A stretch of 44,521 bases of DNA from a virus (IMGVR_UViG_2541047878_000001:1-44521); one strand, 5' to 3'. Shown: positions 4,140 through 10,518, counted from the first letter of the stretch. Numbers and translations are program-made. Notes: generated by a model from the letters alone, not told the origin.

Positions 4140-4440
4140 TGCCCCCGTAGGGGCGGTTAGTTTCTCCACAAAACAGAGAAGAACACCTGCGGTGGCAGCC
4201 GCCCGGATGGATTGGGTTATGAGCCCGTCGTCCGGTGATGCTCTTCTCTGTTTTGTAAAAAGGACGGTACCAGCCGGAAGCAAGGGTACAAACTGGTACC
4301 TCCAGGACTACACACAGCATAAAGTTGTGGTGCCGGGTGCCTCCCGGTGCCTGGCGAAGGTTGCACACCAGGCGGGTGGGTATCCACAGAAGGTCGACTG
4401 TCAGCCTCAACCTTAACCCGCGTGCGCTGAGCCGCATTCA
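4140..4440. ncRNA. Candidate structured non-coding RNA (unclassified); strand not determined
   Basis: GC-rich block with overlapping short ORFs in several frames, a perfect 15-bp inverted repeat (ACAAAACAGAGAAGA near 4169 / TCTTCTCTGTTTTGT near 4241) enclosing GC-rich sub-hairpins, and hairpin GCCCC-CGTA-GGGGC at 4141-4155. Confidence 0.2.
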
Positions 4441-4719
4441 CCACAACGCTAAGGATTCTCTCTGGTTGAAAATACTTAGCTGTTATGTGCCTGTCTTTTC
4501 ACCACTTCAGGCTCGGTGGTATCCTTTTAAGCCCGTATACATAAAAGGAAAATCAAATGACTTTTGATGAAAAAGAACTTGATAATGCAATTAATAAAAT
4601 CATCGTAACGTCGCTCTTTTCCTGTCTCAGCGACACTCAGCAAAAACAGTTCTACGAATCGGCTTTCAACATGATCGAGCGTTGTTGTTTCTGCGATGCC
4701 GACGAGTTACCTGAAAAAA

Positions 4720-4995
4720 TCAGGAAACAGTTGGCTGATGCTCTTCGAGTGCGACTTTCTGACCAATTTTCTGAAATGTACTCTCCGAATTTGGACAAAT
4801 AGAAAAAGGCCATTTCCATTCAGGGTCTGATGGAAAGACTTCAGCCTGTTCTAAAGCACGGCGTAAAGAGAACACAACTCCAGCCATAATCTGATGTTTC
4901 CCATTGGTCCAGCTATTGCCGCTCTGATCTACAGGAGCGGCTATGTCGTATGACCAAACGACTTCACCACTATTGTTTAAAATCTGGACTTTCAT
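4720..4995 (-). CDS. Hypothetical small protein (91 aa)
   Basis: ORF with GGAGG upstream, adjacent to the stop of the 5004-5225 ORF; overlaps a plus-strand ORF (4557-4802), so the call is tentative. Confidence 0.3.
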   Translation of the reverse strand: MKVQILNNSGEVVWSYDIAAPVDQSGNSWTNGKHQIMAGVVFSLRRALEQAEVFPSDPEWKWPFSICPNSESTFQKIGQKVALEEHQPTVS

Positions 4996-5003
4996 TTTGT
5001 TCT

Positions 5004-5225
5004 TTAACCTCCAGATTTCCGCGCATCTAAAGGCGCATTCTCATTTGGTGTGAACTGAATAGTTGTGCTGATATTGATTAATGCCCCGACACACAAGACT
5101 ACGCACTCAGAGCAGATAGCAACTTCATCTTTTCCGCCTTTGGCGATGATTTTTTTTGCCTGCAGCTCGTTTGCGCCACAAAACGAGCATGTGAAATAAC
5201 GGTTCATTTTCGCTCTCTTACACAT
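5004..5225 (-). CDS. Small zinc-ribbon protein resembling the ClpX N-terminal zinc-binding domain
   Basis: CSFCG...(19 aa)...ICSECV spacing similar to the ClpX ZBD C4 motif; first gene downstream of the putative PL/OL region. Confidence 0.4.
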   Translation of the reverse strand: MCKRAKMNRYFTCSFCGANELQAKKIIAKGGKDEVAICSECVVLCVGALINISTTIQFTPNENAPLDARKSGG

Positions 5226-5313
5226 AGTATTTAACGAATCATCCGGTCATTCATACGCCACCGGCGGCTACTTCGTGGGCGTCCTGCCTGTCCGTGATAG
5301 CTTACATTATGTT

Positions 5314-5352
5314 GCTACTTAAAGTAGCAGAAATCAACAACAAAAAGTAGAT
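5314..5352. promoter_or_regulatory. OL-like operator cluster (putative CI binding sites, PL region)
   Basis: Perfect 15-bp palindrome GCTACTTAAAGTAGC (5314-5328) and a further AAAGTAG half-site, related to the repeats in the cI-cro intergenic region. Confidence 0.4.
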
Positions 5353-5429
5353 ATTTGTTGTTGTCTATGATTTTTCTATAATTAATTGAAAGTTAAATGT
5401 TTTTGCTGATTTACGGTAATGACTCCAAC

Positions 5430-5933
5430 TTATTGATAGTGTTTTATGTTCAGATAATGCCCGATGACTTTGTCATGCAGCTCCACCGATTTTGAGAACG
5501 ACAGCGACTTCCGTCCCAGCCGTGCCAGGTGCTGCCTCAGATTCAGGTTATGCCGCTCAATTCGCTGCGTATATCGCTTGCTGATTACGTGCAGCTTTCC
5601 CTTCAGGCGGGATTCATACAGCGGCCAGCCATCCGTCATCCATATCACCACGTCAAAGGGTGACAGCAGGCTCATAAGACGCCCCAGCGTCGCCATAGTG
5701 CGTTCACCGAATACGTGCGCAACAACCGTCTTCCGGAGCCCGTCATACGCGTAAAACAGCCAGCGCTGGCGCGATTTAGCCCCGACATAGCCCCACTGTT
5801 CGTCCATTTCCGCGCAGACGATGACGTCACTGCCCGGCTGTATGCGCGAGGTTACCGACTGCGGCCTGAGTTTTTTAAGTGACGTAAAATCGTGTTGAGG
5901 CCAACGCCCATAATGCGGGGTGTTGCCCGGCAT
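5430..5933 (-). CDS. insB: IS1 InsB (transposase frame, expressed as InsAB' by -1 frameshift)
   Basis: 167-aa ORF overlapping the insA 3' end within IS1. Confidence 0.85.
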
Positions 5934-6127
5934 CCAACGCCATTCATGGCCATATCAATGATTTTCTGGTGCGTACCGGGTTGAGAAGCGGTGTAAGTGA
6001 ACTGCAGTTGCCATGTTTTACGGCAGTGAGAGCAGAGATAGCGCTGATGTCCGGCGGTGCTTTTGCCGTTACGCACCACTCCGTCAGTAGCTGAACAGGA
6101 GGGACAGTTGATAGAAACAGAAGCCAC
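5852..6127 (-). CDS. insA: IS1 InsA
   Basis: 91-aa ORF with zinc-finger-like CPSC...CSHC inside IS1. Confidence 0.85.
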
Positions 6128-6295
6128 TGGAGCACCTCAAAAACACCATCATACACTAAATCAGTAAGTTGGCAGCATCACCTGATTTACTATGCTATAA
6201 ACTGAAAATATCGCACGAAGTTGGAGTAGGTATTGAGCAAGGTGAATTATGAGGAGGGAGTTTTTTATGAGATTAATCAGGGAGAAAGAAGAGTA

Positions 6296-6318
6296 AAGCC
6301 CGGTTATGCGGCCGGGCA
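6296..6318 (-). terminator. Putative terminator downstream of the ParA-like gene
   Basis: GC hairpin (GCCCGGCCGCATAACCGGGC on the minus strand) followed by a T-rich tract. Confidence 0.35.
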
Positions 6319-6324
6319 CATGCA

Positions 6325-7401
6325 TTACTTTGTAAGTTCTAGAACTCGTTGAGCCAGCCCTTTAAATTGTTCGTTAAAGGCGTCTCTGCTTGATTTCATT
6401 GTATTTAAGGCATGCCCAAATTGCCCTGAATCGCGAATTTGCTGATCACTGATGGAGAAAACAGGTGTCGCTAGTTGTTGGCTTATTGCGATTAATGAGT
6501 TGAAATCGGAAATATGCGCAAGATCATAGGCTGATAAATCTCCACTGACTGTTGTTTTGTTAATTGCATGTTGCACTTTATCTCGTGGAATTATGCAGGT
6601 AATTTTTTCTAGATTTGGCACTAAGATCGAATCAACAGCATCACGGATAGCTGCCATCCATTTTTCGAAAGATTTTACAGGTGCTCCTTTACGCGGCCTG
6701 TATCTCTGCTGAATCATACCTAGAAACTGCGGTGCATTTTTAATTGATTGTGAAGAGTTACCATCATTATTTTCTTTAAATAATGCTAATTCTTTGTGCC
6801 AGCGAGGTATATTTTTTGAGAGAGAGCGAATTGCTTGCCAGCAAAAAAAGTCTGGAGCTACAGGTACGATAAAATAGTCACTTGACATGAGAACTACTTC
6901 ATTTAAACCTCCAATATTAGGGCTGAGATCATAAAGAATGTAATCAATATTATTCTTCATGGCGATTAGCTGTAATATTTTTGGCAGGTTCCCTGGTATA
7001 TTTCTTGTAGCAGGAATACCAGCAGCAATTTTTAGAGAAACACTTATCTGTGAATCTAAGTCCGAAACATCTAAATGTCCGGGAAGAAGCAGAAGGTTTT
7101 CATGCAGTGTAGGGTGTAATTTTCCCGTTTCTTTTTCAAGGTATGCTTCAGGTTGTCCGCCATTAATCAAATATTCTACAATAGGTCCAAGAGTTAAGTT
7201 ATCTCTGCTAGAATAAAAAGAATCTAAACCCTCATCAATCTTTTCATAGCCAAGAACCATTCCTGTTAGATTACATTGCGAATCAAGGTCAACCATCAAT
7301 ACTTTCTTGCCTTCATCCGCAAGTGCCCATCCAAGATTGAAGGTTGTTGTGGTTTTACTTACCCCACCTTTATGATTAAAAAAACAAATTGATTTTGTCA
7401 T
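6325..7401 (-). CDS. ParA/MinD-like ATPase with C-terminal extension (358 aa), orphan
   Basis: Deviant Walker A NHKGGVSKTT and ParA-like N-terminal region; AT-rich by eye; sits between the OL-like operators and cI, co-oriented with cI; no parB-like partner nearby. Confidence 0.7.
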   Translation of the reverse strand: MTKSICFFNHKGGVSKTTTTFNLGWALADEGKKVLMVDLDSQCNLTGMVLGYEKIDEGLDSFYSSRDNLTLGPIVEYLINGGQPEAYLEKETGKLHPTLHENLLLLPGHLDVSDLDSQISVSLKIAAGIPATRNIPGNLPKILQLIAMKNNIDYILYDLSPNIGGLNEVVLMSSDYFIVPVAPDFFCWQAIRSLSKNIPRWHKELALFKENNDGNSSQSIKNAPQFLGMIQQRYRPRKGAPVKSFEKWMAAIRDAVDSILVPNLEKITCIIPRDKVQHAINKTTVSGDLSAYDLAHISDFNSLIAISQQLATPVFSISDQQIRDSGQFGHALNTMKSSRDAFNEQFKGLAQRVLELTK

Positions 7402-7571: not shown

Positions 7572-8276
7572 CTAAAGCCGGTTGTATTTAATTGATTCGT
7601 GTATCAATGCTTTGCCCATAACATAAAGTTGATCTTGGGACTTCTCATCAATGTACCATTTCTCATAGGCTGGATTATCCGAAAGAACGGCGAGTTTGTT
7701 GCCTTGCATTTGTAGACGTTTAACGTGGAACGTCTTACCATAAACGAAAGAGTAAACACCATCAGTTTGGAAGTTGCGAACAGAAATGTCGACAAACAGT
7801 CGATCTCCGGAAACTAGAGTAGGGGACATGCTGTCGCCATTTACAGTCATAACTTTAATATCATCTTGAGAACGATTACCGAAAAGAGAACGGGCATGCT
7901 CTGTTGTGAACTCAATGGCGTAGAGCACATCAACATAGTCTGAAAGCATATAGGTCCCAGGTCCTGCGCTAACGCTAAGATCCAAAACTTCTATCCTGTA
8001 TACATCGGGTTTTGTTGGATTGGGGATGCTTGCCATTTCCTTACATCCTTCTCTCTCGCCAACACCATATTCTAAATATGAAGCTGATACCCCCAGAGCC
8101 AATGCAAGTTTATTCATGACAGAGGCACGAGGCTTCGCAGCGCCGATTGTGTATCGCCGCGCCATTTCATATGTAACGCCCACAAGACTTTTGAGTTGGG
8201 TGACAGAAATTCCCTTGTTTGTCATTAGCTCGTTTAGTCTCTTGGCGAAATCTGGATACTTCTGTTCTTCTACCAT
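7572..8276 (-). CDS. cI: CI-like repressor (HTH plus LexA-like S24 peptidase domain)
   Basis: N-terminal HTH (MTNKGISVTQLKSLVGV) and C-terminal S24-like domain (VNGDSMSPTL...GKTFHVKRL); start ambiguous between 8276, 8312 and 8333, and 8276 leaves a typical operator-containing intergenic region. Confidence 0.8.
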   Translation of the reverse strand: MVEEQKYPDFAKRLNELMTNKGISVTQLKSLVGVTYEMARRYTIGAAKPRASVMNKLALALGVSASYLEYGVGEREGCKEMASIPNPTKPDVYRIEVLDLSVSAGPGTYMLSDYVDVLYAIEFTTEHARSLFGNRSQDDIKVMTVNGDSMSPTLVSGDRLFVDISVRNFQTDGVYSFVYGKTFHVKRLQMQGNKLAVLSDNPAYEKWYIDEKSQDQLYVMGKALIHESIKYNRL

Positions 8277-8314
8277 AGGTAGAAGATTACTCGCATCACA
8301 TACGCTAGTCATTT

Positions 8315-8350
8315 CTATTTTAAGTAGTTGCATTTTGCTATTTTAAGTAG
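8315..8350. promoter_or_regulatory. OR-like operator repeats in the cI-cro divergent promoter region
   Basis: Two copies of CTATTTTAAGTAG (8315-8327, 8338-8350) 23 bp apart between divergent cI and cro. Confidence 0.45.
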
Positions 8351-8382
8351 CATCATCCCTCTGAATTTCAGAGGAGAAAGGT

Positions 8383-8646
8383 ATGTCATCTCAAAACTAC
8401 ACAGAGAAAGCAGTAAAAGCTGCGGGAAAATCTTTATCTGAAGTAGCCCGTCACTTTGGTTTTAAGTCCACTCAATCCGTCGCTAATTGGGTAATTAACA
8501 ATCAAGTCCCGTCAGAACGGGTTTTACAACTTTGTGAGTTGGGAAACTGGTCCGTGACCCCTCATGAACTGCGTCCTGATATTTACCCCAATCCAAATGA
8601 TGGATTACCTGAGTGCTATTCAAAAGTTAGCGGTTCAGCTGCGTAA
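8383..8646 (+). CDS. Cro/YdaS-like HTH regulator (87 aa)
   Basis: Divergent from cI, preceded by GAGGAGAAAGG RBS; HTH-like segment LSEVARHFGFKSTQSVANWV. Confidence 0.6.
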   Translation: MSSQNYTEKAVKAAGKSLSEVARHFGFKSTQSVANWVINNQVPSERVLQLCELGNWSVTPHELRPDIYPNPNDGLPECYSKVSGSAA

Positions 8647-9576: not shown

Positions 9577-10518
9577 ATGAGCACTAAATTAACCGGCTAT
9601 GTATGGGATGGTTGCGCTGCATCAGGCATGAAGTTATCCAGCGTGGCAATTATGGCCCGCCTGGCTGATTTCAGTAATGACGAAGGTGTGTGCTGGCCAT
9701 CAATTGAAACCATTGCCCGTCAGATTGGCGCGGGGATGAGTACCGTCAGAACGGCTATCGCACGGCTGGAAGCAGAAGGCTGGTTAACGCGTAAGGCGCG
9801 TCGCCAGGGTAACCGCAATGCGTCGAATGTTTATCAGCTTAACGTTGCGAAGCTTCAGGCAGCGGCATTTTCTCAACTGTCAGATTCTGACCCGTCAAAA
9901 TCTGACGCATCAAAATCTGACCCGTCAAAATTTGATGCGTCGAAATCTGGCAAAAAAGCGGGTTTTCACCCGTCAGAATCTGGCGGGGATCCGTCAGTAA
10001 AATCAAAACATGATCCGTCAGATAAAAAAACTTCTCGTCCGGACGCTTCGCAACCGGACACGCAGACGGCTGAACAGGAGTTTTTAACTCGCCATCCTGA
10101 TGCGGTTGTATTCAGCCCTAAAAAGCGCCAGTGGGGAACGCAGGATGATTTGACCTGCGCACAGTGGCTCTGGAAAAAAATCATCGCCCTGTACGAGCAG
10201 GCCGCCGAATGTGACGGCGAGGTGGTTCGTCCCAAAGAACCGAACTGGACAGCCTGGGCAAACGAAATTCGCCTGATGTGTGTGCAGGATGGTCGTACTC
10301 ACAAACAAATCTGCGAGATGTACAGCCGCGTCAGCCGCGATCCGTTCTGGTGCCGTAACGTGCTCAGCCCGTCGAAGCTGCGGGAAAAATGGGATGAGCT
10401 TTCCCTGCGCTTATCGCCGTCCGTCAGCACGTACACCGAAAAACGCGAAGACCCGTACTTCAAAGCCAGTTACGACAACGTGGACTACAGCCAGATCCCG
10501 GCAGGATTCAGGGGGTGA
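9577..10518 (+). CDS. Replication initiator with N-terminal wHTH (lambda O-like role), iterons inside the gene
   Basis: N-terminal helix-turn-helix (SIETIARQIGAGMSTVRTAIARLEAEGW) and an internal SKSD/PSK repetitive linker encoded by tandem DNA repeats. Confidence 0.6.
   Translation: MSTKLTGYVWDGCAASGMKLSSVAIMARLADFSNDEGVCWPSIETIARQIGAGMSTVRTAIARLEAEGWLTRKARRQGNRNASNVYQLNVAKLQAAAFSQLSDSDPSKSDASKSDPSKFDASKSGKKAGFHPSESGGDPSVKSKHDPSDKKTSRPDASQPDTQTAEQEFLTRHPDAVVFSPKKRQWGTQDDLTCAQWLWKKIIALYEQAAECDGEVVRPKEPNWTAWANEIRLMCVQDGRTHKQICEMYSRVSRDPFWCRNVLSPSKLREKWDELSLRLSPSVSTYTEKREDPYFKASYDNVDYSQIPAGFRG
9880..10035. repeat. Iteron array (putative replication origin) embedded in the initiator gene
   Basis: Four tandem 15-bp units TCTGAC(C/G)C(G/A)TCAAAA at 9886-9945, further CCGTCAGAA-like copies to about 10020, then an A-rich tract (GATAAAAAAA). 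Confidence 0.55.

Follow-up and report, generated by a model that had tools for sequence, protein, structure and literature searches.

The window analyzed here, that is, the whole stretch of 44,521 nucleotides of viral DNA (IMGVR_UViG_2541047878_000001), opens in proA (1-1254) and then enters a prophage located at the thrW tRNA gene. In the RefSeq twins of this region, proB, proA, tRNA-Thr, and the integrase gene are followed by yfdT, yfdR, ymfL, and yfdN, and because of these four genes the early region is regarded as CPS-53/KplE1-like. Strain EC6622 is 100% identical to the window over positions 4400-5420, which include the small zinc-finger gene that is the subject of this study.

The immunity region contains a gene for a CI-type repressor (7572-8333, minus strand; HTH_3 and Peptidase_S24 domains), for which RefSeq places the start further in (234 aa), together with a cro-like gene (8383-8646, plus strand) and a CII(CP76)-like gene. 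The place that lambda gives to rexAB, flanked by the repressor gene on one side and by the leftward operator on the other, is taken by a gene for a ParA-family ATPase (6325-7401, minus strand; AAA_31/CbiA, PHROG 164). This ATPase gene also has a weak PADLOC match to the candidate system PDC-M28B, which covers the P-loop only. The replication initiator (9577-10518, plus strand) is a mosaic in which an N-domain of the HTH_36 winged-helix type is joined to a lambda-O-like C-domain; the latter is homologous to the C-domain of lambda O (BLASTP E 1e-25), and the N-terminal part is not homologous to that of lambda O. Within the initiator gene, the linker-coding part carries a 15-bp tandem array repeated 4.3 times (TCTGACCCGTCAAAA, 9886-9949), which, by analogy with the O gene of lambda, probably represents the origin iterons.

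On the minus strand, the original prediction had pointed to an open reading frame (ORF) of 73 aa at 5004-5225 (MCKRAKMNRYFTCSFCGANELQAKKIIAKGGKDEVAICSECVVLCVGALINISTTIQFTPNENAPLDARKSGG). This ORF is real and its translation was reproduced, the minus strand reading MCKRAKMNRYFTCSFCG...AICSECVVLCV.... The likely coding sequence is 5004-5207 (minus strand), which encodes a stand-alone ClpX-type zinc-binding-domain (ZBD) protein of 67 aa beginning at the second Met. Since this Met is the start in every homologue retrieved (MN.Y.TCSFCG), and since a Shine-Dalgarno-like AAGAGAG (5213-5219) is positioned 5 nt before its ATG, the true product is most likely the 67-aa protein. The six in-frame codons by which the longer ORF exceeds it (5208-5225, minus strand) have no counterpart in the homologues, hold the AAGAGAG element, and are probably 5′ leader rather than coding sequence. 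Both versions are present in RefSeq, the 67-aa protein in the identical strain EC6622 (WP_001083098.1) and the 73-aa protein in strain EC11. The Cys codons of the gene are located at 5187-5189, 5178-5180, 5112-5114, and 5103-5105, and the protein has a net charge of about +1 (7 K/R and 6 D/E, counted).

An operator-like perfect palindrome of 15 bp (GCTACTTTAAGTAGC, 5314-5328), which is presumed to be OL, is found 107 nt upstream of the zinc-finger start. When up to three mismatches are allowed, this sequence occurs at only three places in the 44.5-kb window, namely 5314, 8314, and 8337, with five strand-wise matches compared with 0.84 expected by chance. The two other copies revealed by the motif search (8314-8351) lie between the repressor and cro genes and are presumed to be OR; the CI-type repressor presumably binds all of these operator-like sites. 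Directly downstream of the leftward operator, a candidate -10 element, CATAAT (5306-5311, minus strand), was read by eye and is accompanied by a poor -35 element, and a sigma-70 promoter scan of the IS1-free twin gave no 9-of-12 match before the zinc-finger gene; the leftward promoter itself is one that we infer.

The leader between the presumed promoter and the coding sequence extends over 5226-5305 (minus strand). About 60 nt of it are nearly identical to a Salmonella prophage (5226-5290, minus strand, versus 5915-5975 in locus L007), in which the operators and the coding sequence are diverged despite the near-identical leader. With regard to the leader RNA, the predicted fold is no better than that of shuffled sequences (z -1.18), and no Rfam family was matched.

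On the upstream side, a terminator-like hairpin 3′ of the ParA-family gene (6298-6317, minus strand) marks the boundary between the repressor transcript and the zinc-finger operon. Between this terminator and the leftward operator sits a complete IS1 element of 768 bp (5415-6182), flanked by an 8-bp target duplication (TGATTTAC, at 5407-5414 and 6183-6190). Strain EC11 lacks this element, EC6622 carries it, and it does not belong to the ancestral locus. IS1 is located 87 bp upstream of the operator, and the presumed promoter region is therefore intact.

The arrangement around the zinc-finger gene recurs in its closer relatives. Proteins with 56-76% identity are encoded in Enterobacter/Citrobacter (loci L003-L006), in Salmonella (L007-L009), and on a metagenomic contig (L015), and in all of these loci the gene is located directly downstream of an S24 repressor gene on the same strand. 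In L003 and L007, a hairpin 3′ of the repressor gene is followed by copies matching the local repressor-cro region and then by the zinc-finger gene; these operator-like copies differ in sequence from those of the window. The claim that the gene is the first of a leftward early operon, behind an inferred promoter, is thus supported by the palindrome, by the terminator that closes the ParA-family gene, and by the recurrence of this architecture in three immunity specificities.

The next gene in the same orientation (4720-4995, minus strand) starts 8 nt after the zinc-finger stop codon and encodes a protein of 91 aa that belongs to PHROG 3195, a family without an assigned function, and that RefSeq lists as hypothetical. 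None of the other loci examined has this gene beside the zinc-finger gene. It forms a convergent pair with an ORF of 81 aa on the plus strand (4557-4802), with an overlap of 83 nt; both members have strong matches to PHROGs (3311 for the plus-strand ORF and 3195 for the minus-strand one), and RefSeq annotates only the minus-strand member. Opposite-strand ORFs are also present right after the zinc-finger gene in other loci, and they are not convincingly homologous to the 81-aa ORF.

In addition, matches to the prophage sRNA family STnc100 (RF02076) were found in the window (4255-4477, minus strand), in L001 (5855-6078), and in L007 (6691-6885), with scores of 37.5-43.4 bits, just under the gathering score of 47. 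In both E. coli and Salmonella, the STnc100-like stretch lies 3′ of the zinc-finger gene on the same strand, and part of it is annotated in RefSeq as a frameshifted hypothetical pseudogene. A 2026 preprint reported that STnc100 is related to PasD and listed 'Fels-1 prophage chaperone' as its commonest neighbour, a name that may refer to the present zinc-finger family.

The CSFCG...ICSECV motif noted in the original prediction is real, and the profile search suggested there assigns the protein to the Pfam family PF06689 (zf-C4_ClpX) with 41.2 bits and an E-value of 1.5e-10 over residues 12-46 of the 73-aa ORF, above the gathering score of 27 bits. Besides zf-C4_ClpX, a Pfam scan at E up to 1 returned only Zn_ribbon_Elf1, a weak match (E 0.052; 14.1 bits versus a threshold of 29.8), and no Gin/CsfB, CIII, or other family. 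In a sequence search of the PDB, the best matches are all ClpX ZBD or ClpX, led by 2DS5 and 1OVX, and the identity to the ClpX ZBD is approximately 37-41%, well above the roughly 20% of CsfB, whose likeness to ClpX is one of fold (PMC5890618). The four cysteines C7, C10, C32, and C35 are invariant or nearly so in an alignment of 44 sequences, across which six columns are invariant, and their spacing is C-x2-C-x21-C-x2-C, compared with C-x2-C-x18-C-x2-C in ClpX. Several non-ligand residues are also shared with ClpX (ClpX numbering), including S15, F16, G18, I35, E38, V40, L42, and C43. Among the single-domain relatives, the equivalent of F16 is invariant (79/79), and that of the non-ligand Cys, C43, is invariant or nearly so in the same 79 proteins. 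The likeness to the ClpX ZBD that had been proposed is therefore supported by profile, sequence, and predicted fold, and the analysis presented here establishes that the protein is a homologue of the N-terminal ZBD of ClpX and that the motif match is not due to chance. On the other hand, it is not the ClpX unfoldase itself: the protein has 67 aa and no AAA+ module, and the NCBIfam ClpX models align over the first 43-48 positions only, with equivalog scores of 25.8 and 23.4 bits, far below the cut-offs of 359 and 371.

Several features set the phage protein apart from its ClpX counterpart. At ClpX position 34, the phage-protein clade has Ala, compared with Tyr in E. coli ClpX; Tyr or Phe is present at this position in about half of the retrieved tandem ClpX-type fingers. 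A 3-residue insertion versus ClpX (the KGGKDE loop) adjoins position 34, the equivalent of I46 varies among relatives (A/T/V/I/M), and the helix has a far more hydrophobic sequence than its ClpX counterpart (CVVLCVGALINI in the phage protein versus CVDLCNDIIREE in ClpX). These sequence differences (Ala34, the loop insertion, variable I46, and the hydrophobic helix) suggest that the ligand specificity may differ from that of ClpX.

An AlphaFold2 model of the zinc-finger protein, built on the 44-sequence alignment, predicts a folded core of residues 1-50 (5058-5207, minus strand), which consists of a zinc knuckle, a beta-hairpin, and a C-terminal helix and has block-mean pLDDT values of 76-95. 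When the model was compared with the PDB by Foldseek, the top eight matches were all ClpX ZBD or ClpX models, and the core superposes on the ZBD crystal chains 2DS5, 2DS6, and 2DS8 with an rmsd of 1.4-1.7 A and a target-normalised TM of 0.80-0.85. It had been considered that the motif spacing might prove incompatible with the ZBD fold, a concern that is not borne out, as the predicted model superposes despite the spacing of x21 versus x18. Compared with the E. coli ClpX ZBD (PDB 1OVX and 2DS5-2DS8), the phage protein is predicted to have the same four-Cys treble clef and C-terminal helix; it is free-standing, and a disordered tail takes the place of the linker that connects the domain to the ATPase in ClpX. 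The core is under purifying selection, with dN/dS of 0.23-0.28 where synonymous sites are unsaturated; between genera these sites are saturated.

The C-terminal tail (residues 51-67; 5004-5057, minus strand) is predicted to be disordered, with a pLDDT of about 48, and tails vary between clades in both length and sequence. A hydrophobic strand motif (I-x-I-x-F/L, 'AP', 'GG') occurs in the tails of some clades only and is truncated in the protein of the window. The idea that this motif docks on the domain in the manner of the SspB XB peptide is unsupported, and in the AlphaFold model of the Enterobacter-clade protein the terminal motif is disordered (pLDDT below 50).

A HMMER search of 1.84 billion representative sequences gave 154 hits at E up to 0.001, few of which are full-length ClpX. 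One group of hits is a tight enterobacterial clade of proteins of 57-123 aa, which have the N-terminal 50 residues in common and variable tails. Other single-domain relatives are more distant. In locus L012 (5001-5198), which belongs to a Mu-like prophage, the gene comes immediately behind that of the repressor and lies opposite an early operon of the ner/A/B type. In L017 (5001-5219), which is a lambda-like phage with its own N, cI, cro, and cII, it is located between cII and the genes for an HTH_36 initiator and a lambda-P homologue, and it overlaps the called start of the initiator gene; the HTH_36 N-domains of this initiator and that of the window have 41% identity. Of the remaining distant single-domain relatives, one is found in a phage replication module and one in an early operon beside a cro/repressor pair, and a non-phage member is part of a chromosomal PadR operon.

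Among complete E. coli genomes, the zinc-finger gene was detected in 131 of 5,426, and some alleles have a 1-bp deletion. In four genomes (H33, H34, H36, and H37, including an ST131 isolate), 203 of 204 nt match and no CDS is annotated, a pattern that suggests frameshifted alleles within prophages undergoing decay. The family corresponds to PHROG 5259, whose category is 'unknown function'. RefSeq uses the name 'ClpX C4-type zinc finger protein' and UniProt 'ClpX-type ZB domain-containing protein', and a Salmonella relative was submitted as 'phage ATP-dependent protease, ATP-binding subunit'. The domain call is thus already public, and the PHROG, RefSeq, and UniProt names label the domain only. 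The present analysis contributes a corrected start, the observation that different immunity types all place the gene first after OL, and the repeated occurrence of relatives beside likely ClpX clients. Full-text literature searches turned up neither a study of a free-standing ClpX-type zinc finger from a phage nor one of a ClpX inhibitor encoded by a phage. Two further candidate identities were considered and rejected. Rac YdaE, a zinc-binding protein, gave no BLASTP alignment at E up to 100, and no PADLOC family of known anti-phage defence systems matched the zinc-finger protein at E up to 0.01.

With regard to function, previous studies of ClpX offer a starting point. The ClpX ZBD is a constitutive dimer that docks SspB, RssB, lambda O, and trigger factor by a hydrophobic pocket including F16 and I46, and the degradation of lambda O requires this domain (PMC7804408). 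[quoted passage not shown] By analogy, the phage protein could be a ZBD mimic that is made as lytic development begins and inhibits ClpX-directed degradation in trans, as a decoy or anti-adaptor; we favour this reading over the others, though tentatively, at somewhat below even chances. In a lambdoid, CPS-53-like prophage at thrW, the leftward early promoter under repressor control would transcribe this gene first, and the protein would accumulate after induction or infection. It would dimerise as the ClpX ZBD does and act on the ClpX system in trans and transiently, either by soaking up docking partners, such as the adaptors SspB and RssB or ZBD-dependent substrates (initiators of the lambda-O type), or, alternatively, by pairing with the N-domain of ClpX itself. 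Labile phage proteins such as the O-type initiator would then be transiently protected.

Such a mechanism is plausible because the free ClpX ZBD inhibits adaptor-dependent degradation in vitro. The Mu-like and lambda-like contexts of the distant relatives appear to fit it as well, as circumstantial evidence drawn from gene neighbourhoods. Like the Mu transposase, the Mu repressor is a ClpX substrate. A broader form of the same idea, which we regard as possible and advance with a little less confidence, is that temperate phages of the lambdoid and Mu-like types express a diverged free ClpX docking domain first after derepression and thereby reprogram the substrate choice of ClpXP. Adaptor- and ZBD-dependent degradation would be blocked and quality control of the ssrA type would be spared, so that initiators, transposases, or regulators would be protected, or a defence triggered by ClpXP would be prevented.

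Several observations count against a decoy. They include the differences from ClpX described above, namely Ala in place of the conserved Tyr34, the inserted loop residues, the variable I46 position, and the more hydrophobic helix. The determinants of lambda O that are recognized by ClpX lie in its N-terminal part, the very part to which the initiator of the window is not homologous. The gene is present in only 131 of the 5,426 complete E. coli genomes, with some alleles carrying a 1-bp deletion. The domain also occurs in settings without an evident link to ClpX, such as cyanobacterial sigma factors and the PadR operon, CsfB puts the fold to an unrelated use, and the existence of the PadR-operon member and of the cyanobacterial accessory domain implies that the fold is not restricted to ClpX-related roles. 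Furthermore, because the ZBDs of ClpX pair constitutively and are locally concentrated, a free domain may invade their dimers inefficiently.

Among the alternatives, it is conceivable, though on balance unlikely, that the ZBD fold has been reused as a small dimeric zinc scaffold for a target unrelated to ClpX, such as a sigma factor, RNA polymerase, or another take-over target. There are precedents in CsfB, a dimeric treble clef that structurally most resembles the ClpX N-domain and inhibits sigma factors (PMC5890618), and in cyanobacterial sigma-70 factors, which carry zf-C4_ClpX as an accessory domain (PMC11119718); the replacement of Tyr34 by Ala, the loop insertion, and the helix that is more hydrophobic than in ClpX also point in this direction, and the variable tails could carry target specificity. 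Nevertheless, approximately 40% identity to the ClpX ZBD with retention of ZBD-specific non-ligand residues speaks against this reading, as does the Pfam result, with no Gin/CsfB match and only the weak Elf1 match besides ClpX, and a ClpX-unrelated target would leave unexplained why relatives in the Mu-like and lambda-like phages have ClpX clients, whether known or likely, as neighbours. The docking-type domain might instead work as a recruiter, which pairs with the ClpX N-domain or fills its docking site while the tail delivers one particular protein, of host or phage origin, to ClpXP to be destroyed; candidate cargoes are a defence protein or fragments of the repressor. The combination of a folded domain with a disordered, clade-specific tail, resembling SspB-type adaptors in reverse, speaks for such delivery, as does the fact that the gene neighbours that of the repressor in every lambdoid locus and in the Mu-like one. 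We consider it improbable, as the tail encoded in the window has only about 17 residues and is devoid of the terminal hydrophobic strand motif of other clades, no partner is identifiable, and AlphaFold predicts no ordered tail.

It is much less probable that the protein is a nucleic-acid-binding zinc-ribbon regulator occupying the slot of lambda N, either as an antiterminator or as a translational regulator like Mu Com. Its position as the first gene after pL is that of N on the lambda map, and it is a small protein of the zinc-binding type with a weak match to Elf1 (E 0.052). However, that match is far below threshold (14.1 versus 29.8), a net charge of about +1 is unlike that of the arginine-rich N proteins, the lambda-like phage with a distant relative also has its own N, and proteins are what the ClpX ZBD is known to bind (PMC7804408). 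Least probable of all, and in our view hardly to be entertained, is the reading that the 5′ end of a clpX gene was captured and persists as a remnant that is decaying or without function. Some E. coli alleles do have a 1-bp deletion and are unannotated, and an IS1 is found nearby in the prophage, but purifying selection acts on the core, the 44-sequence alignment has six invariant columns, and position and intact frames have been kept across genera whose synonymous divergence is saturated.

Phages encode several inhibitors of host AAA+ proteases, including lambda CIII, which acts on FtsH, and T4 PinA and T7 Gp4.5, which act on Lon. For these small early proteins, it has been proposed or shown that they weaken a host protease and thereby shield phage regulators or block triggers of abortive infection, and the gene for lambda CIII is likewise part of the pL operon. 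The zinc-finger protein has no sequence relationship to them (in Pfam, only ClpX and the weak Elf1 match were found), and it differs in its proposed target, ClpX, and in its proposed mechanism, which would be mimicry of the docking domain of the protease. The closest parallel to this mechanism is the isolated recombinant ClpX ZBD, likewise a free ZBD of about 50-60 residues that is a competitor in trans (PMC7226468; PMC12373786); it is a laboratory fragment of ClpX, whereas the phage protein is the product of a diverged natural prophage gene, and its binding of the same ligands is putative. Bacillus subtilis CsfB (Gin), a small dimeric treble-clef zinc protein, has the fold closest to that of the ClpX N-domain, with approximately 20% identity to ClpX and different dimer contacts (PMC5890618), whereas the phage protein is a member of PF06689 without a Gin hit. 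Membership in the CsfB/Gin family was therefore rejected, as no Gin match was obtained in the Pfam scan at E up to 1.

ClpXP sets the stability of lambda O, Mu transposase, sigma-S, and other regulators via the ZBD docking platform. If the ClpX-directed reading is true, the protein would be the first virus-encoded modulator specific for ClpX, and it would inhibit by mimicking the receptor domain of the protease and not its substrates. A genuine ZBD mimic would provide prophages with a simple and testable route to tune host proteolysis at the lysis-lysogeny switch, and it would provide research with a ready-made ClpXP inhibitor that is selective for substrate classes. If the target is unrelated to ClpX, the protein would be one more small early phage protein.

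The second group of hits in the HMMER search consists of numerous short proteins that carry two to four ClpX-type fingers in tandem. These architectures, which include P0016, P0018, P0024, P0027, and P0028, appear to be undescribed, and one protein of 2,505 aa matches in 22 stretches.
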